38,716 bases of DNA from a virus (Duplodnaviria; Heunggongvirae; Uroviricota; Caudoviricetes): IMG/VR virus record IMGVR_UViG_2740892369_000044; one strand, 5' to 3'. Every line of letters begins with the position of its first letter. Position 1 is the first letter of the stretch. The translations under genes and the position numbers were made by a program. The notes under the pieces were generated by a model, which did not search any database, was not told where the DNA came from, and saw nothing but the letters and a program-made list of their open reading frames with translations. Shown piece after piece: positions 5,436 to 28,910 of this stretch.

Positions 5436-5512
5436 TTACCGTTGAGGTAATAATTATGCGTATCTGGTTTGGTGTCAATAGATATGAGTTAAAAAAATTA
5501 CCCGTTAGGTAA
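5436..5512. promoter_or_regulatory. OL-like operator region: two copies of the TTACC-N5-GGTAA inverted repeat (about 5436-5450 and 5498-5512)
   Basis: TTACCGTTGAGGTAA and TTACCCGTTAGGTAA read directly, upstream of the leftward early operon and downstream of the repressor terminator. Confidence 0.6.
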
Positions 5513-5569: not shown

Positions 5570-6154
5570 TTATTGTTTGTTTTTTTCGTTCTGGTTGATG
5601 ACAAATTCAATGTAACTTTCGATCTTTGCCTTCTCTGTTTCAGGTAACAATGCGTAGCGCGAGCGGTCATAGTTGATAGTTGCAGGGTCATGCGGATGAA
5701 TCAGTAGTTCATATCCGTGACGCCCGAATGCAGATGCAACATTCTCCAGGGTGGAAATGGAAACGCTGACCTCATTGTTTAACAGGCGGCTTATTGTCAC
5801 CTGGGCGACGCCGGATGCGCGGTGAAGTTTTCCCTGAGTTGAAAGGTCGCGGCTTTCACTCATCCAGCGTTCCAGGTTGTGAGCTGCCAGCTGACCAATG
5901 TCGCTTGGGCCGACAGGCTGAAAACCTTCCTGAGAAAGCGAGCGATCGATATCAAGCCAGTTACGGGGTTTATTGGCGGCAGCTTCAATTTTTCGTGCAA
6001 CCTGGTCGCCGATAACCTTCTTGCCAAGAGCCCAGCGGTTTACCAGATTTGCCTGAGTTCCAAGTTTTTCAGCCATCCGCGTCTGAACACCATTGAATTC
6101 ACGGTCGATCAAGTCGTTGAGATTTTGCCTGCGGACGTCCTGGATACTTTTCAT
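5570..6154 (-). CDS. CI-like prophage repressor with two XRE-type HTH domains and no S24 peptidase domain
   Basis: 194 aa; HTH-like segments near residues 25-60 (QTRMAEKLGTQANLVNRWALGKK) and 115-150 (VAQVTISRLLNNEVSVSISTLENVASAF); divergent from the Cro-like gene with operators between. Confidence 0.7.
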   Translation of the reverse strand: MKSIQDVRRQNLNDLIDREFNGVQTRMAEKLGTQANLVNRWALGKKVIGDQVARKIEAAANKPRNWLDIDRSLSQEGFQPVGPSDIGQLAAHNLERWMSESRDLSTQGKLHRASGVAQVTISRLLNNEVSVSISTLENVASAFGRHGYELLIHPHDPATINYDRSRYALLPETEKAKIESYIEFVINQNEKNKQ

Positions 6155-6905: not shown

Positions 6906-7721
6906 ATGAGCAGACATGCAACAGATTGGGCCTGGGAGACAGATCCAGGTAGCTCATCATTAAAGCTCATACTGCTCTCGATGGCTGACAGAGCCGATGA
7001 ATATAACCTCTGCTACCCCAGCATAGAACGCCTCGTTAAAGACACTTGCCTGAATAAAAAAACCGTGCAGGCCGGGCTTATATCGCTCATGAAAATGGGG
7101 CTTATTTCAGATACCGGAGAGAGAAAGGGAGCGACGAAAAGAGTGCGGGTTTTCTCTCTTAATATAACCAAAAACGGGAACATTAAAGGCAACCGGGAAG
7201 GGGGTAATGAACCCGAAAACGGTAATGTTACCGAAAACGGGAATATACCCAAAAACGGGATGTTGAATGATCCCAAAAACGGGATGTTGAATGATCCCAA
7301 AAACGGGATCCAGAACCAGTCATATAACCAGTCATTTAACCAAGAGAGGGAGAGCAGGACAAAAAGCGGGGATTCTGTGCCTCATGACCCCGGCGCAAAC
7401 AACGCCGTGATGAATAACTTTGTTCCTCCTGGTGGGCCAGGGCAATTAGGCAAATTTGTCATGCATGAACAATGGCAACCATCAGATGACTTTCTTCGGA
7501 AAAGCTCATTGCAGGGGATCTACCTGGACAGTCTGCCAACGGCACAGGAACTTGCAGAGTTCAGAATTTACTGGATGGCTGAGGGTAAGGCATACCATCA
7601 GGCGCAGTGGGAGCAGAAGCTGGCAAGGCGGCTGCAGATTAGCAGACAGAAGCAATCAACATTACCTGATAACAACGTTCCGCACTGGAACAGCCCTGAA
7701 GCATGGGAGGATTTCTTGTGA
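6906..7721 (+). CDS. Replication initiator, lambda O-like (N-terminal HTH DNA-binding domain, repeat-encoded linker, C-terminal domain)
   Basis: 271 aa; N-terminal DWAWE...KLILLSMADRADE...CYPSIERLVKDT pattern of phage replication initiators; internal DNA repeats encode KNG/ENG peptide repeats; stop overlaps the P-like gene start. Confidence 0.75.
   Translation: MSRHATDWAWETDPGSSSLKLILLSMADRADEYNLCYPSIERLVKDTCLNKKTVQAGLISLMKMGLISDTGERKGATKRVRVFSLNITKNGNIKGNREGGNEPENGNVTENGNIPKNGMLNDPKNGMLNDPKNGIQNQSYNQSFNQERESRTKSGDSVPHDPGANNAVMNNFVPPGGPGQLGKFVMHEQWQPSDDFLRKSSLQGIYLDSLPTAQELAEFRIYWMAEGKAYHQAQWEQKLARRLQISRQKQSTLPDNNVPHWNSPEAWEDFL
7168..7310. repeat. Iteron-like direct repeats inside the O-like gene; candidate replication origin
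   Basis: At least six copies of CC(N)AAAACGG(G/T)A within about 140 bp, including two perfect 24-bp copies CCCAAAAACGGGATGTTGAATGAT; followed by an AT-rich stretch with CAGTCAT(A)T(A)AACCA repeated twice. Confidence 0.6.
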
Positions 7722-11797: not shown

Positions 11798-12393
11798 TGA
11801 TGCCTGCTGAACCTAAAACCTATAAACGCAAATCAACGCAATTTAAGCCGCTCACAGCAATGCAGGAGGCTTATTGCCAGTCATACATCAAAACGCCTGA
11901 AAACCAGACTCAGGCAGCGATTAACGCAGGATTCTCCCCAAATACAGCGGCAGTTAAAGCCAGTGTCATGATGCGCGATGAACGCATTCAAAAACGGATT
12001 GCCGAGTTGATGGAGGAGCGCAACAAACGAATGCGCGTCAGTGCTGATTACGTTCTCATGCGCCTGGTGGAGATCGACCAGATGGACGTGATCGATATCC
12101 TCAACGACGATGGGAGCCTTAAACCAATCCGTGAGTGGCCGAAAATCTGGCGCACTACGCTTAGCGGCTTTGATCTGTCATCGACCATCATGAACATGAA
12201 CGAGGATTCGATAGAGACAATCCTCAAAAAAATTAAATGGCCTGACAAGGTGAAGAACCTCGAACTGATTGGTAAGCACGTCGACGTCAACGCATTCAAA
12301 GAACGCTTGGATGTTAATGTGAATGTGACAATTGCTGATCGCATAGCAGCAGCCAGGAAGCGACTCAAAGAACGTCAGGATGGCAATCAGTGA
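11797..12393 (+). CDS. Terminase small subunit (P27-type)
   Basis: Internal ATG (MMPAEPK...) of track ORF 11719..12393; LTAMQEAYCQSYIK...NQTQAAINAGFSPNTAAVKAS...ADYVLMRLVEI pattern of phage small terminase subunits; stop overlaps the large subunit start. Confidence 0.75.
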   Translation: MMPAEPKTYKRKSTQFKPLTAMQEAYCQSYIKTPENQTQAAINAGFSPNTAAVKASVMMRDERIQKRIAELMEERNKRMRVSADYVLMRLVEIDQMDVIDILNDDGSLKPIREWPKIWRTTLSGFDLSSTIMNMNEDSIETILKKIKWPDKVKNLELIGKHVDVNAFKERLDVNVNVTIADRIAAARKRLKERQDGNQ

Positions 12394-13865
12394 CAGATAC
12401 AGCGTTATCTCCTGAAGAGCAGTTAATCGAGGATATTGCAGGGTTCACTCACGATCCGCTTGGCTATGCCCTCTATGCGTTCCCGTGGGGGGAAGAAGGG
12501 ACTGAACTGGCACATGCTACCGGCCCACGTCAGTGGCAGGCTGATGCGTTCCGAGAGATACGTGATCACCTGCAGAATCCAGCGACGCGCTATCAGCCGC
12601 TTATGCTGGCACTCGCTTCTGGTCACGGTATTGGTAAATCCGCATTCATCTCAATGCTGATCAACTGGGGCATGTCCACTTGCGAGGATTGTAAGGTCGT
12701 GGTGACCGCCAACACCGACAACCAGCTACGAACGAAGACCTGGCCGGAAATTATCAAGTGGTCGAACCTTGCTATCACGAAAGACTGGTTTACCTGTACC
12801 GCTACCGCGATGTACAGCAATGACCTAGGGCACGACAAGCGGTGGCGGGCTGACGCAATACCCTGGTCTGAGCACAACACCGAGGCATTCGCCGGACTAC
12901 ACAACGAGCGCAAACGCATCATCGTGGTGTTTGATGAAGCGTCGAACATTGCGGATCTGGTGTGGGAAGTTGCCGAGGGTGCGCTTACGGACGAAGACAC
13001 TGAGATTATTTGGGTGGCGTTCGGAAACCCTACACGTAACACCGGGCGTTTTCGCGAATGTTTCCGCAAATATAAACACCGCTGGAAAACTGCGCAGATT
13101 GACAGCCGGACGGTGGAAGGCACTAACAAACAGCAGTTGCAGAAATGGGTTGATGACTACGGGGAAGACAGCGACTTCGTTAAAATCCGTGTGCGCGGCA
13201 TATTCCCGGATGCATCTGAATTGCAGTTTATCCCTACCGGACTTACTGACGAGGCAATGAAACGGGTGGTCACCGCTGCGCAGGTTGCATATGCTCCGGT
13301 GATAATCGGCGTTGACCCGGCATACTCAGGCGTTGATGACGCTGTGATATACCTGCGGCAGGGGCTGCACAGTAAGGTGCTGTGGACTGGCAACAAGACT
13401 ACCGACGATCTGATTATGGCGAAGCGTATCGCTGACTTTGAAGACCAGTATCAGGCTGACGCGGTGTTCATCGACTTCGGTTACGGAACCGGTTTGAAGT
13501 CAATCGGTGACGGCTGGGGTCGTACATGGCAACTTGTTCCGTTCGGTGGCGCGTCTACTGACCCGCAGATGCTCAACAAGCGTGGGGAGATGTTCAACTC
13601 ATGCAAGACATGGCTGAGGCTCGGCGGCATGCTGGATGACCAGGAAACTGCAGACGACCTGTCGGCGGCAGAGTACAAAGTTCGTGTGGACGGTAAAATC
13701 GTTATCGAACCGAAGGAAGATATCAAAGAGCGGCTTGGGCGTTCGCCTGGTAAAGGCGATGCGCTACTGCTGACGTTTGCTTTCCCGGTGTCAAAGCGCC
13801 TGCGACTTCCCGGGCAGCAGAACCAGCAAGGCAAGGCGCTTACCGAGTACGATCCATATGCTTAG
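12390..13865 (+). CDS. Terminase large subunit
   Basis: 491 aa; Walker-A-like ASGHGIGKS, DEASNI (Walker B-like), C-terminal nuclease-like region; position between small terminase and portal. Confidence 0.85.
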   Translation: MTDTALSPEEQLIEDIAGFTHDPLGYALYAFPWGEEGTELAHATGPRQWQADAFREIRDHLQNPATRYQPLMLALASGHGIGKSAFISMLINWGMSTCEDCKVVVTANTDNQLRTKTWPEIIKWSNLAITKDWFTCTATAMYSNDLGHDKRWRADAIPWSEHNTEAFAGLHNERKRIIVVFDEASNIADLVWEVAEGALTDEDTEIIWVAFGNPTRNTGRFRECFRKYKHRWKTAQIDSRTVEGTNKQQLQKWVDDYGEDSDFVKIRVRGIFPDASELQFIPTGLTDEAMKRVVTAAQVAYAPVIIGVDPAYSGVDDAVIYLRQGLHSKVLWTGNKTTDDLIMAKRIADFEDQYQADAVFIDFGYGTGLKSIGDGWGRTWQLVPFGGASTDPQMLNKRGEMFNSCKTWLRLGGMLDDQETADDLSAAEYKVRVDGKIVIEPKEDIKERLGRSPGKGDALLLTFAFPVSKRLRLPGQQNQQGKALTEYDPYA

Positions 13866-14680
13866 TCTTTATTTTTATCCTCGAAACCTGATAATCCAGA
13901 TAGAACACCAAAGTTATTAAAAACGTTTGGCTTACCAGATTTTAATCCGGATAAGTTGTGTTGCTCCAAAAAGTTACTAATTGTTTGGCCGTTGCCAAGT
14001 GCAAGGCTTTTTATTTGAGATTTTTCAGGGTATTTGAGTTTGTATTCGTCGAAATCATTTTGGAGGGTCTTATATGCCTCATTCATTCTTCCAAGAGTTT
14101 CCGATATCTCTTTTAATGAATGATTTAGAGCTGCTAACTGAGCACTGGCGGATCTCAATTCGTCATCTTTAGCTTTCAACTCGGCAGTCAATTCACCCAT
14201 ACTATTCTTTGATCGAATAATCTCTTCTTTCATCTCTTGGATGTCTTTTTCCGCGCCAGTCTTAACTTTGTCGTATGTAACATCTTTTTTAGCCAATAAC
14301 CTCTGCAGTCTTGTTTCACGCTGGATTTTTCTTGCCTTCAGGTGATTTTCGATTGAGTCATTATTATCAAGAGGCTTTGCTTGCCATACGTTAATGATAT
14401 TGTTTACCCATGGTAATAGGCAGCAGATAGCAATTACAGATAGGCATGGATAAAACATAACAGTTTTCCATGTGCTGTTATCTGAGATATATGAAATTTT
14501 ATCTATTATGTTTGATTTGCTAAAAAATAGATAAAGAATTGATTTCCAGTTGAAGGCGCACCAGGACATAACAAAAGCACCAAGCACAGGGTTTTTGGCT
14601 CTATTCACGGCAGTATTGGCAGTAGATAAAAACAGCTCTTTAAACGATTCAAACATGCTAATTACCTTGAAGTTTTTCAT
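13862..14680 (-). CDS. Accessory (moron) protein: two predicted TM helices at the N-terminus followed by a long coiled coil; function unknown
   Basis: 272 aa from internal ATG (MKNFKV...) of track ORF 13862..14752; strongly AT-rich relative to neighbours; antisense to the late operon; stop overlaps the terminase large stop by 3 nt. Confidence 0.6.
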   Translation of the reverse strand: MKNFKVISMFESFKELFLSTANTAVNRAKNPVLGAFVMSWCAFNWKSILYLFFSKSNIIDKISYISDNSTWKTVMFYPCLSVIAICCLLPWVNNIINVWQAKPLDNNDSIENHLKARKIQRETRLQRLLAKKDVTYDKVKTGAEKDIQEMKEEIIRSKNSMGELTAELKAKDDELRSASAQLAALNHSLKEISETLGRMNEAYKTLQNDFDEYKLKYPEKSQIKSLALGNGQTISNFLEQHNLSGLKSGKPNVFNNFGVLSGLSGFEDKNKD

Positions 14681-14684
14681 GATT

Positions 14685-14699
14685 ATACCTTTAAGGTAA
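14685..14699. promoter_or_regulatory. TTACC-TTAAA-GGTAT site (minus-strand sense) overlapping the ribosome-binding site of the moron gene
   Basis: Read directly; the 24 nt ending at the ATG are near-identical to those in front of the VRR-NUC gene at 8601-8624. Confidence 0.45.
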
Positions 14700-14715
14700 T
14701 TTGCGGTCATCAAGC

Positions 14716-14739
14716 AAAAAAATGCCCGGCGAACCGGGC
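14716..14739 (-). terminator. Rho-independent terminator between the tRNA and the moron gene
   Basis: Stem GCCCGG / CCGGGC with loop CGAA; A7 on the plus strand gives a U-tract on the minus strand. Confidence 0.6.
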
Positions 14740-14771
14740 GAACTGGAAGCAATGAGTTATGCCTTCCGTGG

Positions 14772-14787
14772 CTGTACTGGTTTACAG
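14772..14787. promoter_or_regulatory. Weak LexA-box-like element (CTGT-N8-ACAG)
   Basis: GGCTGTACTGGTTTACAGCA has the correct CTG-N10-CAG spacing but a GC-containing centre. Confidence 0.25.
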
Positions 14788-14902
14788 CATGAAGTCATCG
14801 CAATGGCGTCCTGCTGTAAAAAGGGCGGTGATAGTTCTTCAAGGGAAACCATCACCGCCAAGCGCCTGGAACTTCTGGCATCACGGTCCTTAGGCGTGAT
14901 TC

Positions 14903-14979
14903 TGGCGTGGCATGCAGGATTCGAACCTGCGACCAACCGCTTAGAAGGCGGTTGCTCTGTCCAGCTGAGCTAATGCCAC
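14903..14979 (-). tRNA. tRNA-Arg, anticodon UCU, with encoded CCA
   Basis: Hand-folded cloverleaf: acceptor GTGGCAT/ATGCCAC, D-stem GCTC/GAGC, anticodon stem ACCGC/GCGGT with loop CTTCTAA, T-arm GCAGG-TTCGAAT-CCTGC; body resembles argU-type tRNAs but the acceptor stem differs. Confidence 0.85.
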
Positions 14980-15048
14980 AACGCTGAGAGCACTTAGCCT
15001 GTTAAGGCGCCACACTTTGTCGCGGCTCCATAAATGCTCTCAGCGTTG
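14979..15048. repeat. 14-bp inverted repeat (CAACGCTGAGAGCA ... TGCTCTCAGCGTTG) with about 41-bp spacer, abutting the tRNA 5' end
   Basis: Read directly; would form a leader hairpin immediately 5' of the mature tRNA. Confidence 0.5.
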
Positions 15049-15301
15049 TACCCTCGTCTCTTCCGAGGCGTCACACCGAATCGCCGGGATGGTGAATCCC
15101 CGTGCGCGGAATAAAACCGCTCGACTTGCACATTCCGGCTACCTGGTTCGTTTGCCCGAGCAAGGGAGGGTGCCCCTTAAACGTATCCAGACCGCTATCG
15201 GCGCATGTGCCATACGCCGTACTGCTCAAAATAAAAGCTCACTCCACCTGTTCAATTTAACGACAAGCCAGTCAGGTTAGTAACCGGAATGAACTCTTTG
15301 G

Positions 15302-15368
15302 TTACCTGAAAGGTAATAATTTGTGCGTTAAATGTCAACTATCTACGATAAATAAATCATATGTGGTT
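15302..15368 (+). promoter_or_regulatory. Late-promoter-like cassette upstream of the portal operon: TTACCTGAAAGGTAA site (about 15302-15316) and CATATGTGGTT box (about 15358-15368)
   Basis: Both elements read directly; first ATG at 15407. Confidence 0.55.
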
Positions 15369-15406
15369 AAATTGGTAATAATTTAATTGCGTACGGAGTC
15401 ATTGAT

Positions 15407-15613
15407 ATGTGCATGGGTAGTTCACCATCAGTGCCTGCAACACCAGAAGTTCAGGCAGCACCACAGGAGCAGGATGCCGCCGTTATTGATGCCCGCGACG
15501 AAGAAACTCGTCGCCGTCGCGCTGCTGCTGGTCGTAATTCTACGCTGCTTACCGGTTCTCAGGGCGACACATCAACCGCTAATACCAGCGGTAAAACGCT
15601 GCTTGGTCAGTAA
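15407..15613 (+). CDS. Hypothetical small protein, first gene of the head operon
   Basis: 68-aa ORF with GGAG ribosome-binding site; low-complexity sequence. Confidence 0.4.
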   Translation: MCMGSSPSVPATPEVQAAPQEQDAAVIDARDEETRRRRAAAGRNSTLLTGSQGDTSTANTSGKTLLGQ

Positions 15614-15627
15614 CCGGAGTCATTGAA

Positions 15628-17307
15628 ATGGCGGAAACAACTAAAGAGCGATTGAACAAACAGTTCGCACAACTTGAAAGCGAGCGTCAGTCGTTCGAGC
15701 CGCACTGGCGCGAGTTGAGTGATTACATCAACCCGCGTGGTTCCCGCTTTCTGACTTCTGAGGTCAACCGTAACGATCGACGCAATACACGCATTATTGA
15801 TTCGACCGGGACTATGGCGGCGCGCACTCTCGCCAGCGGCATGATGTCAGGCATCACAAGCCCCGCGCGTCCGTGGTTTCGCCTGGCTACGCCAGATCCT
15901 GAAATGATGGATTATGGCCCTGTTAAGTTGTGGCTTGAGGCGGTGCAGAACCGCATGAACGATATGTTCAATAAGTCGAATCTCTATCAGTCGCTGCCGC
16001 AGTTATACGGAAGCCTCGGCACATACAGCACCGGTGCAATGGCGGTACTGGAGGATGATGAGGACATCATTCGCACAATGCCATTCCCGATAGGCAGTTA
16101 CTACCTGGCTAACTCACCTCGTGGCAGTGTTGACACCTGTTTTCGCAAGTTCTCTATGACTGTTCGTCAGCTTGTTCAGGAGTTCGGGCTAAATAACGTC
16201 AGCGAATCCGTAAAAAGCATGTGGGAAAGCGGCACCTACGAGAAGTGGATTGACGTGATGCATTCGGTTTACCCGAACATTGACCGCGATACATCGAAGC
16301 TGGATAGCAAGAACAAGCCATTCAAATCGGTTTATTACGAGGTTGGTGGCGATAACGACAAGTTGTTGCGTGAGTCCGGATTCGATGAGTTTCCAATTAT
16401 GGCTCCGCGCTGGGAAGTTAATGGCGAAGATGTTTATGGATCATCATGCCCGGGTATGCTGGCGCTTGGACCTGTTAAGGCATTGCAGCTTCTCCAGAAG
16501 CGCAAGTCGCAGTTGATTGATAAAGCCACCAATCCGCCGATGGTTGCTCCGACTTCCCTCAAGAATCAGCGCGCCTCCCTTCTTCCTGGCGACATCACGT
16601 ATATCGATCAGATTACTGGTCAGGATGGCTTCAGGCCTGCTTATCTGGTTAACCCCAGTACAGCAGATTTGGTGGCAGACATTCAGGACACTCGTCAAAT
16701 CATTAACAGCGCCTACTTTGTCGATCTGTTCATGATGTTGCAGAACATCAATACCCGCTCGATGCCTGTTGAAGCGGTGATCGAAATGAAAGAAGAAAAA
16801 CTTCTGATGTTGGGGCCGGTTCTGGAGCGTCTGAACGACGAATGTCTTAATCCTCTCATTGACCGCGCTTTCTCGATGATGGTGCGTAAAAACATGCTGC
16901 CGCCACCGCCTGACGCGATGGAAGGTATGCCCCTGAAGGTCGAATACATTTCCGTCATGGCTCAGGCGCAGAAGTCTATCGGCCTGTCCAGTCTGGCGTC
17001 TACGGTCAACTTCATTGGTCAACTTGCGCAAGCGAAACCAGAAGCTCTCGACAAACTCAACGTTGATCAGGCGATCGATGCATTCGCTGATATGTCCGGA
17101 GTGTCTCCAACCGTCATTGTTCCGCAGGAACAGGTTGAGCAGGCTCGCCAGCAACGGGCACAGCAGCAACAGCAGCAACAAATGATGGCGATGGGAATGG
17201 CGGCGGCACAGGGCGCCAAGACGCTAAGCGAAGCTAAAACTTCGGATCCGAGTGTTTTGTCAGCTATGGCGAATGCAGTTAGTGGTCAGGGTGGGCAATC
17301 ACAATGA
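15628..17307 (+). CDS. Portal protein
   Basis: 559 aa; size, position after terminase and before scaffold/capsid, Gln-rich C-terminus; GGAG ribosome-binding site. Confidence 0.75.
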   Translation: MAETTKERLNKQFAQLESERQSFEPHWRELSDYINPRGSRFLTSEVNRNDRRNTRIIDSTGTMAARTLASGMMSGITSPARPWFRLATPDPEMMDYGPVKLWLEAVQNRMNDMFNKSNLYQSLPQLYGSLGTYSTGAMAVLEDDEDIIRTMPFPIGSYYLANSPRGSVDTCFRKFSMTVRQLVQEFGLNNVSESVKSMWESGTYEKWIDVMHSVYPNIDRDTSKLDSKNKPFKSVYYEVGGDNDKLLRESGFDEFPIMAPRWEVNGEDVYGSSCPGMLALGPVKALQLLQKRKSQLIDKATNPPMVAPTSLKNQRASLLPGDITYIDQITGQDGFRPAYLVNPSTADLVADIQDTRQIINSAYFVDLFMMLQNINTRSMPVEAVIEMKEEKLLMLGPVLERLNDECLNPLIDRAFSMMVRKNMLPPPPDAMEGMPLKVEYISVMAQAQKSIGLSSLASTVNFIGQLAQAKPEALDKLNVDQAIDAFADMSGVSPTVIVPQEQVEQARQQRAQQQQQQQMMAMGMAAAQGAKTLSEAKTSDPSVLSAMANAVSGQGGQSQ

Positions 17308-20508: not shown

Positions 20509-21113
20509 TGGCCTCTGTAGTAGAGATCTGCAATCGCGCGCTGTCCAATATTGGCAATAGCCGCAGCATTAACAGCCTGACGGAAGCCAGCAAGGAAGCG
20601 GGGGAATGTTCGCTGCACTTTGAGGCCTGCCGTGATGCTGTGCTTTCTGATTTTGACTGGAACTTTGCTACCAAACGCGTGGCGCTTGCAGATACGAGCA
20701 ATCCACCGCCTGACTGGGAATATGCGTACCAGTACCCGTCCGATTGTCTGCGCATTACTGAAATTATGCTTCCTGGTGTACGCAATCCAACAGCAGCAAT
20801 GCGCGTTCAGTACGAAGTTGGTGCAGACACCAATGGAACAGGAAAGTTGATCTACACAGACCAGCCTCAGGCATGGCTCAAGTATGTCTCTCGCGTTACA
20901 GATGTGAACATGTTTGATGCCATTTTTATGGAGGCGTTGGCCTGGCGTCTTGCGGCAGCTATTAACATGGCGCTGACTGGGAATGCAGACCTCGGTACGT
21001 TTGCCCTCAATATGTACAATCGCGTGATTCTTAGTGCTGGCTCGCATAGCCAGAATGAATCACAGGAACCACAGCCACCGGTTGACGAGTTTACCATTGC
21101 GAGGTTGTCCTGA
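20508..21113 (+). CDS. Tail tubular protein A-like (T7 gp11-like adaptor)
   Basis: 201 aa; size, order and loose N-terminal similarity (CNRALSNIGNSRSINSLTE versus T7 gp11 VNDILASIGEPPVSTLE). Confidence 0.5.
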   Translation: MASVVEICNRALSNIGNSRSINSLTEASKEAGECSLHFEACRDAVLSDFDWNFATKRVALADTSNPPPDWEYAYQYPSDCLRITEIMLPGVRNPTAAMRVQYEVGADTNGTGKLIYTDQPQAWLKYVSRVTDVNMFDAIFMEALAWRLAAAINMALTGNADLGTFALNMYNRVILSAGSHSQNESQEPQPPVDEFTIARLS

Positions 21114-23584
21114 TGGCTATCAGTTGGATCCATCCAAGCTTTGCTGGTGGTGAGATTGGACCGTCGTTGTACGGGCGTATCGACATGGCGAAGTACCAGG
21201 TGGCATTGCGCAAGTGCGATAACTTTATCGTGCGGCAGTATGGCGGCGTTGAGAATCGACCTGGTACGCGTTTTGTCGGTGCCGCCAAATACCCAAATCG
21301 GAAATGCCGCCTGATCCCGTTCCAGTTCTCGACGGTTCAGACCTATGCTCTGGAGTTCGGACACCAGTACATGCGCGTTATCAAAGATGGTGCGTTGGTG
21401 CTGAACAGCAGCAATGTTATTTATGAAATTGCCACGCCATATACTGAAGCCGATCTGTTCCGAATTAAATTTACGCAAAGCGCCGACGTGCTTACGCTGG
21501 TTCACCCGGCATACCCGCCGAAAGAGTTGCGCCGCTATGCGCATGACAACTGGCAACTGGTTGATGTGGTAACGAAGAACGGGCCATTTGAAGATATCAA
21601 TATTGACGAGTCAGTGACGGTTTATGCCAGCGCCAGCACCGGGACAATTACGTTAACGGCAAACGCCTCTATTTTTGGCGCGGAGCAGGTAGGCAAATTG
21701 TTCTATCTGGAACAGCCTGCAGTGGATTCAGTGCCGGTATGGGAAACCAGTAAGAGTACGTCGATTGGCGATATTCGCCGTGCAGACAGTAACTACTATC
21801 GCGCCGTTACAGCAGGCAAAACAGGCACTTTGCGCCCTTCGCATACAGAAGGCACATCATGGGATGGCTGGGGCGGATCCGGTGATGATGATACCGGCAT
21901 TGAGTGGGAGTATCTGCACAGTGGTTTTGGCATTGCCCGTATCTCTGCTGCAAATGGAACTACTGCAACTGCCGAGGTGATTTCCTATATCCCTTCGCAG
22001 GTCGTTGGCGAGGATAATGCCAGCTATAAATGGGCTAAATATGCCTGGAACAGTGTTAATGGTTATCCTGGCACTGTTGTTTATTATCAACAACGTCTTT
22101 ACTTCGCCGCATCGACTGCGTTCCCTCAGACTATCTGGGCCAGCCGTACTGGTGATTATAAGGATTTTGGCAAAAGCAATCCTACGCAGGATGACGACAG
22201 AATTATCTACACCTATGCCGGGCGTCAGGTTAATGAGATCCGCCACCTGATTGATGTTGGTTCGCTGGTGGCGCTGACTTCCGGAGGTGAGTACGTCATC
22301 ACCGGCGACCAGAACAAAGTGCTTACCCCATCATCATTTGCATTCAGCTCTCAGGGATCAAATGGCTCGAGCAATGTCCCACCAATTGCCGTGGCGAATA
22401 TTGCTCTGTTCGTCCAGGAGAAAGGCAGTGTTGTCCGTGATCTGGCCTACTCATTCGATGTTGACGGCTATCAGGGGAACGACCTTACTATCCTTGCCAA
22501 TCATCTTTTTCAGAAGCACAGCATTGTTGACTGGTGCTTCTCGATAGTCCCTTACTCCAGCGCCTTCTGCATCCGTGATGACGGTAAATTACTGGTGATG
22601 ACCTATTTGCGTGATCAGCAGGTTTTTGCATGGGCACCACAATCCAGTACCGGAAAATATGAAAGCACATGCAGTATCAGCGAAGGCAATGAAGATGCGG
22701 TGTATTTCGTCGTTAACAGAACCGTTAACGGGCAAACAGTGAGATACATCGAGAGACTGTCCAGCCGTTTATTTACCAGCGATGAAGATGCTTTCTTTGT
22801 TGATTCTGGCCTTAGCTATGATGGAAGAAATACGTCTGACAGAACGATGACCATCACTGGTGGTTCTGGCGAATGGGATTATCGCGCGGAATATACAATC
22901 AGTGTTTCTGGTGGTGCGTACTTCACCAGTAGTGATGTCGGCGCGCAACTACAGTTCCCTTATGCCGGAACTGATCCTGGTACTGGCGATGAAGTGTCAA
23001 AAGAATTACGTTGCGACATTATTTCTGTAACCAGCAATACCGCTGTAGTGGTTCGTGCCAACAGGAACGTCCCGCCATCCCTCAGGAATGCGGCCACCAT
23101 GAACTGGCAGATGGCGCGCCGGACATTTGGAGGCCTGTCTCATCTTGAAGGCCAGACCGTAAACATTCTCTCTGATGCGAACGTGGAACCACAGAAAGTG
23201 GTTTCCGGAGGTGCCGTCACGCTGGAATCACCGGGGGCTGTAGTGCACATCGGCCTGCCAATAACTGCTGAATTCGAAACACTGGATATCAACATTAACG
23301 GACAGGAAACGCTGCTGGACAAAAAACAGGTGATCCCGTCCGTTACTCTGGTTGTGAATGCCAGCCGCGGCATCTGGGCGACTACGCCAGGCGGTAAATG
23401 GTACGAATATCCACAGCGTGAATTCGAGTTCTACGATGATCCTGTTGATGACGCTACCGGAAAAGTAGAAGTGAAACTGGACAGTAACTGGGGCAAAAAC
23501 GGACGTGTAAGAATCCGTCAGCTTGACCCGTTGCCGCTGTCTGTTCTTGCCGTTATTCCTCGCCTTACTGTTGGGGGATTTTGA
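21113..23584 (+). CDS. Tail tubular protein B-like (T7 gp12-like nozzle)
   Basis: 823 aa; follows the gp11-like gene with ATGA overlap; size and order match T7 gp12. Confidence 0.5.
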   Translation: MAISWIHPSFAGGEIGPSLYGRIDMAKYQVALRKCDNFIVRQYGGVENRPGTRFVGAAKYPNRKCRLIPFQFSTVQTYALEFGHQYMRVIKDGALVLNSSNVIYEIATPYTEADLFRIKFTQSADVLTLVHPAYPPKELRRYAHDNWQLVDVVTKNGPFEDINIDESVTVYASASTGTITLTANASIFGAEQVGKLFYLEQPAVDSVPVWETSKSTSIGDIRRADSNYYRAVTAGKTGTLRPSHTEGTSWDGWGGSGDDDTGIEWEYLHSGFGIARISAANGTTATAEVISYIPSQVVGEDNASYKWAKYAWNSVNGYPGTVVYYQQRLYFAASTAFPQTIWASRTGDYKDFGKSNPTQDDDRIIYTYAGRQVNEIRHLIDVGSLVALTSGGEYVITGDQNKVLTPSSFAFSSQGSNGSSNVPPIAVANIALFVQEKGSVVRDLAYSFDVDGYQGNDLTILANHLFQKHSIVDWCFSIVPYSSAFCIRDDGKLLVMTYLRDQQVFAWAPQSSTGKYESTCSISEGNEDAVYFVVNRTVNGQTVRYIERLSSRLFTSDEDAFFVDSGLSYDGRNTSDRTMTITGGSGEWDYRAEYTISVSGGAYFTSSDVGAQLQFPYAGTDPGTGDEVSKELRCDIISVTSNTAVVVRANRNVPPSLRNAATMNWQMARRTFGGLSHLEGQTVNILSDANVEPQKVVSGGAVTLESPGAVVHIGLPITAEFETLDININGQETLLDKKQVIPSVTLVVNASRGIWATTPGGKWYEYPQREFEFYDDPVDDATGKVEVKLDSNWGKNGRVRIRQLDPLPLSVLAVIPRLTVGGF

Positions 23585-24048
23585 TGATCGACGTTAAAAT
23601 TATTCCCGCTACCGAAGAGCATCTTCAGATGATTTTGCCGGATGTTCGTCAGGCTGATATTGACGAACTGTATGCAGTATCACTGATGACTACCGAAGAT
23701 GCGCTACGTGTTGGTCTTCGCACTGCGACTATGGCCTGGTCAGGGTTCGCGAACGGAGAACTGGTAACCATGTTTGGTGTATCTCCGGCGTCAATGATCG
23801 GTGGCAATGGTACGCCCTGGCTGGTAGGAACCAGCCGTATTGAAAAATATCAGAAGACATTTCTTCGCCACTGCCGCCCTGTATTGCAGCAGATGCTGGC
23901 AGTTTATCCGCGCCTGGAAAACTACGTCGACGAGCGAAACCATGTTGCCAAAGCATGGCTGCACTGGCTTGGATTCAGGCTTGAAGAAGCCGCGCCTTAT
24001 GGTGCTCTTGGTCTTAATTTCCACAGATTTCACATGGAGAGAAAATAA
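23581..24048 (+). CDS. Internal virion protein (gp13-like position)
   Basis: 155-aa coupled ORF. Confidence 0.45.
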   Translation: MMIDVKIIPATEEHLQMILPDVRQADIDELYAVSLMTTEDALRVGLRTATMAWSGFANGELVTMFGVSPASMIGGNGTPWLVGTSRIEKYQKTFLRHCRPVLQQMLAVYPRLENYVDERNHVAKAWLHWLGFRLEEAAPYGALGLNFHRFHMERK

Positions 24049-24593
24049 TGTGCGATCCGGTTATTGCTGGTGGCGCAATGCTCGCCATGAGTGGCATTCA
24101 GGCATACACCCAGTACCAACAGGGAAAGTATGCCTCGAAGGTTGCAGAAGCGAACGCAGATATAGCCACAGCTCAGGCAAATGATGCAATAAACAGAGGT
24201 AACGCTGAAGCTGAGCAACGACGCAGAGAGACCCGACAGCGGCTTGGTACACAGGCGGCGACAATGGGGGCTACCGGCGCTGATTTATCTACAGGTAACG
24301 CGCTGGATATATTTGGCGACACTGCCCAGTTTGGCGCTCTTGATTCGCTGACGACGGTGAATAACGCGCAACGCGAGGCTTACGGTTATCAGGTTCAGGC
24401 TGCCAACTATAAAGCAGAAGCCAGTTCAGCCCGTAAACAGGGGAATGTGGGAGCAGCAACAACATTGCTCACTGCGCCTCTGAAGGCATACGGTGCGTAC
24501 CAGATGTTTGGTGGGACGTGGAGTCCGTTTACTCAAAGCACTCCTGCGCCAATCGGGGCAGCAGCAGGAACCAGATTACCCGGAGGATTATAA
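24048..24593 (+). CDS. Internal virion protein (gp14-like position)
   Basis: 181 aa; Ala/Gln-rich helical protein. Confidence 0.45.
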   Translation: MCDPVIAGGAMLAMSGIQAYTQYQQGKYASKVAEANADIATAQANDAINRGNAEAEQRRRETRQRLGTQAATMGATGADLSTGNALDIFGDTAQFGALDSLTTVNNAQREAYGYQVQAANYKAEASSARKQGNVGAATTLLTAPLKAYGAYQMFGGTWSPFTQSTPAPIGAAAGTRLPGGL

Positions 24594-27106
24594 TGCCAGT
24601 CGTACCAACAGTATCCGGACGTCAGGTTGAGAGTCGTGGAGTTCAGTCAGCAGGCTTGCAGACGTTTTCTCAGCAAGGTATTGGTGATGCTTTTGTTCGG
24701 GCAGGGACAGAGGCAATTGATGTTTTGGGGCAGGCAAAACAGCGTGCCAATATCGCTCTGGCTCAGGAGGCATCTCTTAACCTCAGTCAGATAAGCAGCG
24801 ATCTGCTGAATAATCCTGAAACAGGATTGCTTAACCTGAAAGGGAAAAATGCTATTGGAAAAGGCCATGAGTATACGCAGCAGTTTGATGCTCAGGTCGA
24901 ACAACTGGCTATGTCGCTGCCGGATGAACAGGCTCGTAATGCTTTCATGCAGCAGGCGCAGCAGCAGCGCATTCAGTTCACTACGCAGGCCGGGCGACAC
25001 GAGATAGGGCAAATTAATGCCTACGAAGAAGGCCAGTTTCAGGCGACACTGCTGAACAATGGTAAAAATGCCGCAGCATTGTATGGCGACAACGCCGCAT
25101 ACGTATTGGCTAACAAGCAAACTTTCCAGCAAATTGAGGAGTACGGTGTTGCACATGGCTGGAGCAACGAGCAAATCCATGCCAAGAAAATCGAGTTTAA
25201 AGAGAAGGTTGCTGATGCTGCATTGTCCCAGTGGTCGGCAAACAATGCGACCGCATTCATCCAAAGTAATGGCGAGTTAAGTGATACTGCTGCTGGAGCT
25301 CGCCGTGCTGTAGCAGATAGTGACTCTTCCGAGCGTGCCCGTGGCATACGCAACAATAACCCAGGAAATCTCGAATACAGCAAAACTAATCCGTGGGTAG
25401 GCCAGACCGGTGATGATGGTCGATTTGCTAAATTCGAAACACCTGAACACGGGATTCGTGCATTAGGGCGGAACCTGATGTCGTATCAGAGGCAGGGTAT
25501 TGATACCGTCAGCGAGATAATTAATCGCTGGGCACCGCCTGCTGATAAAAATGACACTATGTCGTATATCAAAGCAGTGTGCGAACAACTTGGCGTTTCT
25601 GCTGATGAGCCTCTCGATGCATCTAATCCTGATACCCTGAAGGCGCTTTGTGCAGCCATTATCCATCATGAGAACGGTAGCCAGCCATACAGTGATCAGC
25701 AGTTAACTGCTGGTGTCAGTGCAGCACTTGGTTTATCAACAATTCCAACCAACACCAAACGCTATACCGGTAATGCAGCATTCGATGCGGCATCTCCTGA
25801 GGCGCAGGCAAGTTTTATGCGACAGGCGGATCAACTGCGTCGGCAGCAGCAGGCTGAATATAAAACGATGATTGACAGCCAGGTTCGCGATGCGACAGCT
25901 GCGTATATGCGTGGCGTTGAATTTCCTAACCCACCTGGTGAGGCTGATTTTATTGCAGCTTATGGAGTAAGAGAAGGAAACCTGCGATATACCGAGTTCA
26001 GAAATACGCAAATCGCCGGACAGTATATAGGCTCTTTCCGCAACATGCCGACAAGCAGCATTACAGCATATGTTGAGCAATTACGCCCGGATACTGGTGA
26101 GACAGGGGAGGGTTATGCGGCACGAGCCGCTCTTTATGACAACGTTGTGTCGGCTGCAAGTCAGGTGATAAAGCAGCGACAGGCTGATCCTGTACAGTTC
26201 TCTCTTGCCGCCGGACAGGCAAAGCCTATCGACATGAGCAATAAGGATAACTTTGGACAGAGCGTTGCCTTGCGTGCTGCTCAGGTCAGTGACCTTGCTA
26301 AGTCATATGGCACTCCACTGACGTTCTTTTCCAAAGACGAGGCCAATCAGATCGGTGTTTTCTTTCGTGATGCGCCCGTTTCCCAACAGGCAGCATATCT
26401 CGATACCATCAGGCAGAGCACTGGTGGTGGGCAGGTGTATATGTCAGCACTACAGCAGATCAGTGCCAACGCTCCATCTGCTGCCGTTGCCGGGATACTG
26501 ATGGATAAGCCAGGTGGTATTTTGGCAGAAAAAAACTGGTTTAATCCGGATGTTTCCGTGTCTCCAGAAACCGCTGCGCAGACAATTCTTGCTGGCGCGG
26601 CGGCTCGTAAAGGTACTGATGACGCGAAAGGTATTCCGATGCCTAAAGATGCTGATCTTCGCCTTGAGTTTTCTGACATGGTGAAGGATGCATTTGCTGG
26701 TGATGCTCAGGGGGCATCAATGGCATACGAGATCGCAAAGGACTATTACGCTGGTGTGATGGCGAAAAAAGGCGTGGTATCAGGCGAAATTGACAATGAT
26801 ATCTGGAAACAGGCTGTTAACGTAGCTACAGGTGGCGTGCATGACTATAACGGAATGGGGAATGTTCTTTTGCCGTGGGGAATGTCTGCAGAGCAATTCG
26901 ATAAGCAGGTTAATCAGGCTTGGAATGAACAAGTTGTTGGCACAGGGATAAAAACACCGCCTGGTCAGTATGGTTTGCAAAGTTACGGCGATAGTCAGTA
27001 CCTGGTGAAACTTGGTACTGGTTATCTGCTAAAAGATGATGGTTCTCCCGTTGTTCTTGATCTGACACAGAAGCGTCAGAGATTCTCCGGAGATATTCCG
27101 CAATGA
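24593..27106 (+). CDS. Large internal virion/ejection protein with a conserved NNPGN-containing domain
   Basis: ATG overlapping the upstream stop (track ORF starts 24518); motif ARGIRNNNPGNLEYSKTNPWVGQ. Confidence 0.55.
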   Translation: MPVVPTVSGRQVESRGVQSAGLQTFSQQGIGDAFVRAGTEAIDVLGQAKQRANIALAQEASLNLSQISSDLLNNPETGLLNLKGKNAIGKGHEYTQQFDAQVEQLAMSLPDEQARNAFMQQAQQQRIQFTTQAGRHEIGQINAYEEGQFQATLLNNGKNAAALYGDNAAYVLANKQTFQQIEEYGVAHGWSNEQIHAKKIEFKEKVADAALSQWSANNATAFIQSNGELSDTAAGARRAVADSDSSERARGIRNNNPGNLEYSKTNPWVGQTGDDGRFAKFETPEHGIRALGRNLMSYQRQGIDTVSEIINRWAPPADKNDTMSYIKAVCEQLGVSADEPLDASNPDTLKALCAAIIHHENGSQPYSDQQLTAGVSAALGLSTIPTNTKRYTGNAAFDAASPEAQASFMRQADQLRRQQQAEYKTMIDSQVRDATAAYMRGVEFPNPPGEADFIAAYGVREGNLRYTEFRNTQIAGQYIGSFRNMPTSSITAYVEQLRPDTGETGEGYAARAALYDNVVSAASQVIKQRQADPVQFSLAAGQAKPIDMSNKDNFGQSVALRAAQVSDLAKSYGTPLTFFSKDEANQIGVFFRDAPVSQQAAYLDTIRQSTGGGQVYMSALQQISANAPSAAVAGILMDKPGGILAEKNWFNPDVSVSPETAAQTILAGAAARKGTDDAKGIPMPKDADLRLEFSDMVKDAFAGDAQGASMAYEIAKDYYAGVMAKKGVVSGEIDNDIWKQAVNVATGGVHDYNGMGNVLLPWGMSAEQFDKQVNQAWNEQVVGTGIKTPPGQYGLQSYGDSQYLVKLGTGYLLKDDGSPVVLDLTQKRQRFSGDIPQ

Positions 27107-28905
27107 GTTACTTTGGCCTTAATCCAGTAAACCAGAATCAGCAGCTTGACGAAGCAGCATCAAATCCAGTTGGCTTTAACAGCGATGTTGGTTTTTTCGA
27201 CAATGCTGTAGGAGCGGCATTGTCTGGTTTGTACTCCGGGCTGGTGGCAAAGCCAGATCAGTTGCTCTGGGCAGGGATGGATAAAATCGTATCCCCGATT
27301 GCTCAGTTTGTTAACGAAAACACCTCGCTCAATGACACTTCAGTTTCATACATTGCCGAGCAGAGAAAACTAGCAGAGCAGCAGGTTAAGCGGCTGACGC
27401 CTGATGCCGCGACAACCGGAACCGCCGGGCAGGTTCTTTATGGGTTGTTCGATATGGGCGGGCAGGCTGTTATCGGTACAACGCTCGGTGGTCCGGTCGG
27501 AGGTGCTGCGGCGGTAACTTCGCTACAGGGTTTTTCTGAGTTTGAACGGCTGACAGCACAGGGTGTTGATTTCAGGACGGCGCAGGAAGCGGGATTAGTG
27601 CAGGGTATTACTGCTGGTGCCGGAACACTGATCCCTATGAGCCTCGGGTTACGTGCTGGTGGTGCGCTGGCGGAAGGTGTGGCGGCTCAGCTTGCGCGGA
27701 CGGGTGAAAGTTCAGTGCGACGCGCCGCAGCAACAGCAGTACGTGCAACGCCAGATATTGCCTATGCCGCAGGTACAAATATTGCGTTCGGTATGGCACA
27801 GCGTGGGCTTACTGCAAAAACGCTTCGTGATGGTGGCTATAGCGAAATGGCTAACCAGTATGATGTGTTGGATCGGCAGGCAATCGCTATTGATGCTGTT
27901 CTTGGGGTGGCGTTTGGTGGTGTCGGCAGATTTATTAACTCTCGCGGTGAGGCTACAAGCACCCCCAATTTTTCACCAGTTGATGTCGATGCGGCACTGG
28001 CGGCGAATGCCGCTCATCATGCTGAAATTGATATTTCTCCCGGCGTGCCGATCAACGTGCTTTCGCGCAATTCTCACATTCAGGCTCTGCGAAAAGCTAT
28101 GTCTGATGTTAGCCAGGGGAGACCTGTAGACGTTGCCAGCATTGTTGAGTCTGCATCTTTCAGTGAAATTCCTGGGCGCAAGAGTCTGCTGTCTCAGGCA
28201 GTTAATGAGGCTCTGTCATCTGTAGATGATGGAGTAACGGCGCGCGCTATAGAAAATCGGTTGCTTGAAGAACAGGCCGCGCAGCTTTTGCCGCGTGGAG
28301 ATAGACAGGTTTACCAGTCTGAAATCGCTAATAGCCAACGAATTATTGAAAATCTCACTGAACAGCGTGCACAAATTCTTGCAGAAGAGCCAACCGGTAG
28401 CGGTAAAGCTTTGTCTCGTGCTCGATCAGATAAACAGGCCAGACTTCGCGATATTGACCAACGAATCCGGCAGGCACAAGAACGCCTGGAATTTTCTCGT
28501 AACGCGTTGGCACCGCATGAGCCTGGCGGTCAGTTTTTTGAAGCTCGAGCAGAACTGGCTCGGAGACAGCAGGCAGAAAGTGAACTTAATGCTCAGGCTG
28601 TTTCATTCTATAAAACAGCAGAGGTCAGGACGCCAGACGAAGTAGCTCCTTTTGAGCCCGGTAAGATATTGCAACAGACAGAACAAAAAATGATGGCAGA
28701 TCCGGCAGGAGATATTGATCTGCGTATAGCTGAAGACTCGCTGCTTGAATCTCCGGACATGATAATCACCGTGCTGGATGATGATGGTAATCCACAATCG
28801 CGCAGTGCGCGTGAAGTACTGGATGAAGCGAACAGGGAAAGTGAGCAGGCAATACAGGATTCCAGCCTGTTTGATGTTGCTGTGGCGTGTTTCTTGAGAG
28901 GTTAA
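27103..28905 (+). CDS. Internal virion/ejection protein
   Basis: 600-aa coupled ORF; Gly/Ala-rich N-terminal region. Confidence 0.5.
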   Translation: MSYFGLNPVNQNQQLDEAASNPVGFNSDVGFFDNAVGAALSGLYSGLVAKPDQLLWAGMDKIVSPIAQFVNENTSLNDTSVSYIAEQRKLAEQQVKRLTPDAATTGTAGQVLYGLFDMGGQAVIGTTLGGPVGGAAAVTSLQGFSEFERLTAQGVDFRTAQEAGLVQGITAGAGTLIPMSLGLRAGGALAEGVAAQLARTGESSVRRAAATAVRATPDIAYAAGTNIAFGMAQRGLTAKTLRDGGYSEMANQYDVLDRQAIAIDAVLGVAFGGVGRFINSRGEATSTPNFSPVDVDAALAANAAHHAEIDISPGVPINVLSRNSHIQALRKAMSDVSQGRPVDVASIVESASFSEIPGRKSLLSQAVNEALSSVDDGVTARAIENRLLEEQAAQLLPRGDRQVYQSEIANSQRIIENLTEQRAQILAEEPTGSGKALSRARSDKQARLRDIDQRIRQAQERLEFSRNALAPHEPGGQFFEARAELARRQQAESELNAQAVSFYKTAEVRTPDEVAPFEPGKILQQTEQKMMADPAGDIDLRIAEDSLLESPDMIITVLDDDGNPQSRSAREVLDEANRESEQAIQDSSLFDVAVACFLRG

Positions 28906-28910
28906 ATTAA

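Follow-up and report, generated by a model that had tools for sequence, protein, structure and literature searches.

A genus-wide accessory slot between terminase and portal of a Uetakevirus prophage combines a covarying structured RNA, a tRNA-Arg, and exchangeable cargo genes

Introduction

The viral record IMGVR_UViG_2740892369_000044 (Caudoviricetes), a stretch of 38,716 nucleotides that was analyzed at its full length and is called the window below, raises the question of what a protein gene and a tRNA gene, both read leftwards, are doing between the genes for the terminase large subunit and the portal. An initial annotation, made from the sequence alone, described an accessory island in which an AT-rich, horizontally acquired gene for a membrane-anchored coiled-coil protein (here the cargo gene) is accompanied by a tRNA-Arg. 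It called the protein a typical superinfection-exclusion or abortive-infection candidate and treated positions 14980-15300 as spacer.

The window is a phiV10/epsilon15-type (Uetakevirus) prophage of Escherichia coli. The chromosome of E. coli strain 97-3250 matches positions 13862-15400 at 100% identity, and the terminase-portal flanks are 96-99% identical to those of phages phiV10, ZX5, PAS61, and TL-2011b. The island is read against the head-gene operon, and it would consist of three separable units (Table 1): a pseudoknotted RNA, a tRNA followed by two terminators, and a swappable cassette. We consider it probable that the locus is a hypervariable Uetakevirus slot built from these units, whose present occupant encodes a repressor-gated membrane conflict protein.

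Results

The terminase-portal junction is a genus-wide slot for accessory genes

Homology between the window and its relatives breaks off sharply at two places, namely at 13861/13867, the terminase stop, and at 14716, where the T-run of the second terminator ends. Phages phiV10, ZX5, and PAS61, with flanks 96-99% identical to those of the window, lack the cargo gene. Across the relatives, at least eight unrelated genes, Tad2-like anti-defence genes among them, occupy the cassette position. The cargo is a Phage_gp49_66 protein in phiV10 and epsilon15, an unrelated protein of 140 amino acids in PAS61, and a protein of 168 amino acids in SPN9TCW, while the slots of EC.W1-9 and BUCT711 hold diverged members of the cargo protein's own family, phrog_4780. 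We also counted cargo in 26 viral loci that had been picked by the RNA motif described below and thus independently of what they carry: nine encoded a Phage_gp49_66 protein, six the unknown 140-residue family, four the present family, three a Tad2-like protein, and four something else. Tad2-like (Thoeris anti-defence 2) domains in the slot were recognized with E values of 4e-26 and 3e-24. IMG/VR loci L096 and L107 have such proteins between the tRNA-Arg and the terminase, and one of the two also has an N-terminal extension of ~75 residues that has no Pfam match.

The cargo open reading frame (ORF) has a GC content of 0.37, compared with 0.545 for the terminase gene and 0.52 for the portal gene, which agrees with the AT-richness first reported. 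Its absence from relatives that are 96-99% identical, the sharp breakpoints, and this low GC content bear out the view that the gene was horizontally acquired, and on these comparisons the cargo gene is a horizontally exchanged accessory gene. The junction is present in ~504 E. coli genomes, and the present allele in ~37 of them. Comparison of the junction in relatives, which the initial annotation had set as a test of its island, gave a divided answer: the cargo is not core, but some leftward-read accessory gene was found in the slot in six of the six other Uetakevirus phage records examined. Since all six fill the slot, only the present cargo is accessory and the slot itself is genus-wide, that is, a hotspot of the genus and not a one-off island.

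Members of the family also occur elsewhere. In 59 of the 70 viral loci that encode it, the gene converges with a near-full-length terminase match (469-495 amino acids). In five more viral loci and in the lambdoid Klebsiella phage KO-TP1, all of other phage backgrounds, it is accompanied by no more than a piece of the terminase 3' end; the cassette has therefore left the slot together with its flank. The KO-TP1 copy (L011, 5850-6967) lies between the replication and nin genes and keeps ~150 base pairs (bp) of terminase 3'-end homology as well as ~110 bp of the terminator region; judged by sequence, this arrangement is the footprint of a transfer that began in the Uetakevirus slot. Two more distant members were also seen: one between the replication and nin genes of a second Klebsiella phage, the other, with 23% identity and an E value of 2e-5, in the inovirus Vibrio phage vB_VipaK (L012, 5001-5771). 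The vB_VipaK gene adjoins a homologue of ORF9 of f237, and the phage is an f237-like filamentous phage of V. parahaemolyticus.

An operator-type palindrome lies over the predicted cargo promoter

A sigma-70-like promoter is predicted for the cargo gene inside the variable cassette, and the same architecture precedes four other cargo alleles. This promoter is overlain by an operator-type palindrome, TTACC-N5-GGTAA, of which the window contains 13 sites where 0.68 are expected (positions 5436, 5498, 6210, 6258, 6595, 8542, 8604, 11765, 11783, 14685, 15302, 32243, and 35512). The palindromes are usually merged with a -10-like TAATAAT. Some stand between a helix-turn-helix repressor gene (194 amino acids, 5570-6154) and a cro-like gene, and several more are found elsewhere at promoter-like positions. 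In the epsilon15 record, a repressor-binding site of 17 bp is annotated that has the same TTACC-N5-GGTAA core. Three other Uetakevirus alleles retain the motif at the same promoter position despite divergent surroundings, and the BUCT711 promoter has a divergent palindrome there. As a set, the palindromes resemble a dispersed operator system, comparable to the C1 operators of P1, that takes in early, head, tailspike, and cargo promoters.

Since an operator palindrome covers its promoter, the cargo gene is probably off in the lysogen. It would be switched on once the repressor is gone, and exclusion of other phages during lytic growth would still be compatible with such control. Cargo of the Phage_gp49_66 type has no promoter of its own, its start codon following ~20 nucleotides after the terminator, and would therefore be expressed by read-through from upstream. 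The paper on ZX5 gives no operator or transcript map. The site at 15302 probably belongs to a rightward promoter that is under repressor control and serves the gp3-like ORF and the portal gene. It had also been considered as a promoter-operator of the structured RNA, a candidate that we dropped because its flank (GGTAATAAT, plus strand) fits the rightward promoter.

The cargo protein joins a conserved N-terminal module to a hypervariable tail

The mechanical ORF runs through 13862-14752 on the minus strand. Starting from the ATG at 14680 gives 272 amino acids, the length reported initially and in RefSeq (WP_000787773.1), but the equivalent of Met9 (ATG 14656) is the start in 44 of 44 aligned homologues, so the true product probably begins at 14656 and has 264 residues. 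The predicted -10 hexamer (14687-14682) stands beside the first ATG, and the transcript should therefore start downstream of 14680. At the other end, the TAA of the cargo ORF (complement, 13862-13864) overlaps the terminase TAG (13863-13865), as had been noted, and this overlap leaves no terminator downstream of the gene.

Of the two N-terminal transmembrane helices originally proposed, one is clear (approximately residues 71-99), while the other (approximately residues 31-53) is marginal. An AlphaFold2 model built from 45 sequences places long helices at residues 109-216, consistent with the coiled coil of roughly 100 residues described at first. Since this model is poor (pLDDT 65.9, pTM 0.26) and a Foldseek search of the PDB with it returned nothing at E<=0.001, we make no argument from the fold.

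The protein matches phrog_4780, a family listed without a function, at an E value of 3.2e-137, its residues 9-272 aligning with profile positions 1-267 of 275. The family is large, with 314 clusters at 50% identity (E<=1e-10), and many residues are invariant across its aligned members. Mean pairwise identity is 78% in the N-domain (residues 9-167) and 18% in the C-terminal remainder; of the pairs with an N-domain identity of 80% or more, three-quarters drop below 30% in the tail. From this alignment the family is modular, with a conserved N-terminal module of ~160 residues, predicted to be membrane-bound, and a hypervariable coiled-coil tail.

Searches for a known function returned coiled coils or nothing, in agreement with the initial statement that no known family could be assigned. 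The best Pfam match scored 17.5 bits against a cut-off of 26.6, and all NCBIfam matches fell far under their cut-offs. PADLOC-DB 2.0 gave only coiled-coil segments of DndD, PbeC, LmuB, and JetC (E>=2e-5, all within residues 92-260), and a profile search of PDB sequences only coiled coils. Fifty-two distant relatives behaved alike, yielding only coiled-coil families among curated families and only coiled-coil noise in PADLOC. When family profiles (A1 and A2) were run with hmmsearch against the ORFs of P22 together with SieA, SieB, and gp17, neither SieA nor SieB was hit at E<=10, and the sole P22 match was the coiled coil of the tail needle gp26. A literature search on the protein accession found nothing relevant.

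The tRNA-Arg reads a codon that is rare in the host and is followed by two terminators

ARAGORN and the Rfam tRNA model (RF00005; 71.7 bits, gathering score 29) both recover the tRNA-Arg (UCU) that had been proposed. Aligned without gaps to argU of E. coli K-12, it has the same base at 63 of 77 positions and an identical anticodon loop; the 14 differences fall mostly in the acceptor and anticodon stems. AGA accounts for 6.7 per 1000 codons (11% of arginine codons) in 31 prophage ORFs, compared with 0.98 per 1000 (1.6%) in 25 host core genes, and so is ~7 times commoner in the prophage. This difference supports the initial reading of the tRNA as serving a host-rare codon, and the tRNA would thus supply AGA decoding for the prophage. 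AGA makes up five of the eight arginine codons of the cargo gene, is nearly absent from the terminase, portal, and capsid genes, and is used by early, large internal, and tailspike genes; genes rich in AGA lie at 6906-7721, 21113-31385, and 32362-34983.

The tRNA accompanies the cargo family in 44 of its 70 loci, and epsilon15 lacks it. A tRNA-Arg is already annotated in O157 typing phages 9 and 10, phiv142-3, and SPN9TCW. The downstream terminator assigned to the tRNA at first was recovered as a 14-bp hairpin, and a second one follows it, so that there are two terminators rather than one.

A conserved, covarying RNA lies directly upstream of the tRNA

The stretch 14980-15300, earlier passed over as spacer, instead holds a conserved structured RNA. 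We aligned 50 sequences below 93% identity, in which invariant blocks are separated by hairpins of variable length. Junctions and loops are strongly conserved, and the long stem of P7 is formed by different sequences in other lineages. Under the proposed structure, 95.4% of cells are paired as against 86.1% in shuffled alignments, and 138 cells show double changes as against 40.7. The covariation score was 0.280, compared with 0.124 in shuffles (0 of 500 reached the observed value) and at most 0.068 in slid-partner controls. Double changes occur in 15 of 32 pairs, with compensatory changes in five helices. Both invariant and variable G-U pairs fit the minus strand only, and the fold z score is -3.9 for that strand vs. 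-2.4 for the plus strand. Together, these measurements point to a pseudoknotted RNA with strong covariation on the minus strand at 15048-15222.

RNAalifold proposed a long-range pairing between the GCACAU block and AUGUGC, which we dropped for the local hairpin P1. The local hairpin is preferred because its pair columns 70/82 switch from G-C to A-U (24 vs. 26 sequences), whereas the long-range pairs never covary.

Rfam 15 covariance models (E<=1) matched only the tRNA, both in 14650-15450 and in the whole window, and no Rfam family matched at the position of the element in five other loci that carry it. A covariance model built here (R1) scored 145 bits in the window and 39 bits where epsilon15 has a truncated copy; it found nothing in 22-30 kb of HK022, a record in which the put coordinates are unannotated. 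The truncated copy lies at 2602-2693 of epsilon15 (L017), and an annotated "RNaseIII processing" site begins at its edge.

The RNA is widespread and often stands at the start of early operons

Other E. coli records with copies ~83% identical to 14980-15300 number in the hundreds and include P1-like plasmids. Such copies are also present in 86 records of phages, for example P1, P7, D6, SJ46, mEp460, cdtI, Stx2c, and Klebsiella phages as well as a Stenotrophomonas phage. Most of these phage records carry no annotation at the element, and some annotate hypothetical ORFs across it. An exact core 19-mer was found in at least 120 viral contigs and in the genomes of 24 species, nearly all of them Enterobacterales. 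Literature searches on the invariant 15-mer of the RNA, on the P1 ban/trnI region, and on put-like RNAs returned no relevant work.

In 41 of 120 loci, the RNA has a tRNA on its own strand no more than 400 nucleotides away. Uetakeviruses carry tRNA-Arg downstream, the RNA being directly 5' of it in the window, and P1-like elements carry a CAU-anticodon tRNA upstream, annotated in P1 as tRNA-Ile (trnI) in the C1-controlled ban operon. In at least 10 distinct lineages elsewhere, the gene that precedes the RNA on its strand encodes a cI/LexA-like repressor. In mEp460, the repressor gene and its terminator come first, then a PL-like promoter that has inverted repeats, the RNA, a strong terminator, and finally the first early gene; the RNA starts ~40 nucleotides after the PL-like promoter, beside the cI-like gene, and P22 has nutL at the equivalent position. 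Terminator-like hairpins occur on the sense strand within 600 nucleotides downstream in 75 of 84 distinct loci, compared with 18-62 of 84 in controls, these loci being related and so not independent; in most lineages the terminators follow within 100-250 nucleotides. In the window, a weak promoter candidate for the RNA and tRNA was seen by eye (TTGAAC-16-TATTTT at ~15235-15262).

Two further observations concern loci that carry the RNA. In mEp460 (L020, 2380-2505) and other lambdoid copies, the segment after P7 starts with GUGGUGAAU and later contains UCACCAC, an acceptor-stem-like arrangement around ~128 nucleotides. The segment was considered as a tRNA (GUGGUGA ... UCACCAC), and no tRNA or tmRNA model matched it. 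Another locus (L031, 2538-2726) has a genuine C4 antisense RNA and isrK ~2 kb from the RNA, and several phage RNA genes therefore cluster in these early regions.

Layout of the slot and its flanks

The features of the slot and its conserved flanks are collected in Table 1. The portal ORF (15628-17307) matches Head-tail_con at an E value of 2e-187, and the small ORF before it (15407-15613) resembles gp3 of epsilon15. The terminase ORF has no Pfam match at E<=0.001, but is annotated as terminase in relatives (P1 PacB-like; in the epsilon15 record Sf6 gp2, by HHpred). A lysis cassette of holin, GH19 endolysin, and DUF2514 is present elsewhere in the window, at 35870-37426. In a megablast search with the terminase-portal region, 64 Synechococcus phage records matched, presumably through the tRNA-Arg.

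Table 1. Positions of the slot, its contents, and its flanking genes in the window
Feature	Position	Strand	Remarks
Terminase large subunit	12390-13865	+	491 amino acids; conserved left flank of slot
Hypervariable cassette	13862-14715	-	Bounded by terminase stop and second terminator
Cargo gene, predicted inner-membrane/coiled-coil protein	13862-14656	-	264 amino acids; annotated as 272 from ATG 14680
Sigma-70-like cargo promoter (ATGACC, 17 nucleotides, TATAAT)	14682-14710	-	Predicted; inside variable cassette
Operator-type palindrome TTACC-N5-GGTAA	14685-14699		One mismatch; over spacer and -10 of cargo promoter
Intrinsic terminator 2, GCCCGG-TTCG-CCGGGC then T7	14724-14739	-	Predicted; T-run ends at cassette boundary 14716
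Intrinsic terminator 1, 14-bp stem then CTTTTT	14824-14859	-	Predicted; downstream of tRNA
tRNA-Arg, anticodon UCU, reads AGA	14903-14979	-	ARAGORN; CCA end encoded; 77 nucleotides
Long closing hairpin P7 (CAACGCUGAGAGCA ... UGCUCUCAGCGUUG) around variable insert	14980-15047	-	Ends exactly at tRNA 5' end
Core of conserved structured RNA: helices P1, P2, P4, P6 and pseudoknot P5	15048-15222	-	~175 nucleotides
Perfect operator palindrome then TAATAAT	15302-15316		TAATAAT on plus strand
gp3-like small ORF (15407-15613) and portal (15628-17307)	15407-17307	+	Conserved right flank of slot

Discussion

When and where the cargo protein would act

We favor a cargo protein that would act as a conflict factor at the inner membrane in the phases without repressor, namely infection and induction. 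Its activity would reside in the conserved membrane module, which might for instance block the DNA entry of other phages or alter envelope function, and the variable coil would set partner specificity or oligomerization. We do not think that the gene is a constitutively expressed lysogenic-conversion gene. The initial annotation's label of a typical superinfection-exclusion or abortive-infection gene found no support, given the operator over the promoter, the lack of homology to SieA or SieB, and the Tad2-like slot-mates. The model behind that label, a classical moron that is expressed in the lysogen and excludes or aborts infection by other phages, is in our judgment rather unlikely, although much of the anatomy would suit it: the gene has a predicted promoter of its own, runs antisense, is low in GC, and moves between phage types, it encodes a predicted membrane anchor, as many exclusion proteins have, and a conserved module joined to a variable tail is common among conflict genes. 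Against it stands the palindrome, which covers the promoter in five of five Uetakevirus alleles examined (in divergent form in BUCT711); moreover, PADLOC produced nothing beyond coiled-coil noise, homology to SieA/SieB of P22 was not detected, and the neighboring slot alleles include anti-defence genes, not defence genes.

These slot-mates also raise the prospect of an early counter-defence or host-takeover factor, for example one that neutralizes a membrane-associated defence or alters division or the envelope. Tad2-like domains in the same slot and a promoter that appears repressor-gated, implying lytic-phase expression, would fit such a role, which we nonetheless hold to be unlikely: no known anti-defence protein in Pfam or PHROGs is similar to the cargo protein, the Tad2-like cargoes lack a comparable long coiled coil, and a shared slot is weak evidence for a shared function. 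A role of the cargo protein in virion structure, assembly, or lysis (as a spanin-like or scaffolding protein) seems extremely improbable. A membrane anchor followed by a coiled coil is superficially i-spanin-like and the gene adjoins terminase and portal, but it is absent from phiV10, ZX5, and PAS61, viable phages that are 96-99% identical, and lies on the strand opposite to the late genes; since the window has its own lysis cassette, the cargo protein is not the phage's spanin.

Several observations weigh against the repressor-gated conflict protein that we favor. The lambdoid KO-TP1 copy keeps the promoter and has lost the operator; such a copy would be a constitutive moron, in keeping with the model of expression in the lysogen. 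The operator over the cargo promoter carries one mismatch, and the evidence for repressor binding consists of the epsilon15 annotation and of the sites between the repressor and cro-like genes. The topology is ambiguous, the first helix being weakly hydrophobic and acidic residues following just after the second, and relaxed constraint, not an arms race, may be what makes the coil variable.

What the structured RNA may do

We propose, tentatively and with low confidence, that the RNA represents an undescribed class of phage regulatory RNA, a cis leader found at the nutL/putL position of lambdoid phages, in the P1 ban operon, and in the tRNA-plus-cargo island of Uetakeviruses, where the slot would be an RNA-driven platform for swappable conflict genes. 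As a cis-acting leader it would help RNA polymerase pass the downstream terminators, a role that we favor but of which we are less sure than of the anatomy, and lambdoid phages without N would use it at the nutL/putL position. Cleavage by RNase P at the tRNA 5' end would separate the structured RNA from the tRNA. For such a leader speak the promoterless Phage_gp49_66-type cargo, which needs read-through, and the placement of the RNA in mEp460 between a PL-like promoter and a strong terminator that precedes the first early gene. Against it, the enrichment of downstream terminators is just as compatible with a short, independent RNA gene ending at the terminator, and P1 has no terminator close after the RNA.

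The contexts indeed fit a put/EAR-like read-through leader and a stable RNA released by RNase P equally. The stable RNA, trans-acting or processing-related and freed from a common precursor with the tRNA, would be no antiterminator; it is a possibility to be taken seriously, if still on the unlikely side. It would account for the same-strand tRNAs that adjoin the element in 41 of 120 loci, for terminators that follow within 100-250 nucleotides in most lineages, as expected of a discrete RNA gene, and for the high conservation of junctions and loops. In lambdoid phages, however, a transcript terminated there would leave the early-left genes after the PL-like promoter unexpressed, and no candidate target or partner protein emerged from the present analysis. 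We regard it as very unlikely that the stretch is not an RNA but a gene for a small protein or a DNA site, for example one that binds a protein or bounds recombination. In mosaic phages the element does mark the borders between modules, and hypothetical ORFs are annotated across it in some records, but compensatory changes in five helices, strand-specific G-U pairs, and variable-length hairpins inserted between invariant blocks argue against it, and the overlapping ORFs of the window are short and non-coding in appearance.

Comparison with known phage elements

Morons and accessory hotspots of temperate phages are well known from bor and lom of lambda, gp15 of HK97, and sieA of P22, and the hotspot concept comes from P2/P4. 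Like these, the cargo gene is a single gene of deviant GC under a predicted promoter of its own, lies between conserved genes, opposes the late operon, and is replaced in relatives; unlike them, its promoter carries the phage's own operator, it lacks its own terminator, and its slot also contains an RNA and a tRNA. With SieA and SieB of P22 it shares a small predicted membrane protein and a promoter of its own (predicted here, annotated in P22), and sieA of P22 is likewise antisense to the flanking late genes, but the cargo protein differs in size and in having a coiled coil of ~100 residues. The Tad2 and Phage_gp49_66 proteins that occupy the slot in sister phages are unrelated in sequence and architecture, and are thus alternatives and not relatives. 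The tRNA has the same anticodon and the same length of 77 nucleotides as argU, from which it is set apart by 14 of 77 positions and by its fusion to an upstream structured RNA. Phage tRNA-Arg(UCU) genes are exemplified by argN/argO of Stx phages.

Known cis-acting antitermination leaders include nutL of lambda and P22, putL of HK022, and EAR of Bacillus. In lambdoid genomes the structured RNA occupies the place of such leaders, after a repressor gene and PL-like promoter and before terminators and the early-left genes. It shares a pseudoknot with EAR. The put RNA measures ~70 nucleotides; the present RNA is far larger, and antitermination by it is putative. The C4/CI antisense RNAs of P1, P7, and P4 (RF01695) are matured by RNase P. 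They too are phage non-coding RNAs of immunity and early regions, but the Rfam C4 model fails to match the element. Whereas the protein and the tRNA belong to known kinds, the RNA could be truly new.

For the biology of these phages, the slot offers a hotspot that is easily recognized in common prophages of E. coli, Salmonella, and Klebsiella by the succession of terminase stop, cassette, terminator, tRNA, and RNA. With at least eight cargo families already visible, it is a source from which unknown conflict genes can be harvested. The present cargo adds a large and sharply modular membrane-protein family (314 clusters) that has no assigned function. Beside it stands a widespread covarying RNA outside Rfam, placed at early-operon starts in model-phage lineages that include P1 and Stx2c phages. 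If this RNA controls termination or phage development, it would bring a new RNA mechanism to textbook phage regulation.

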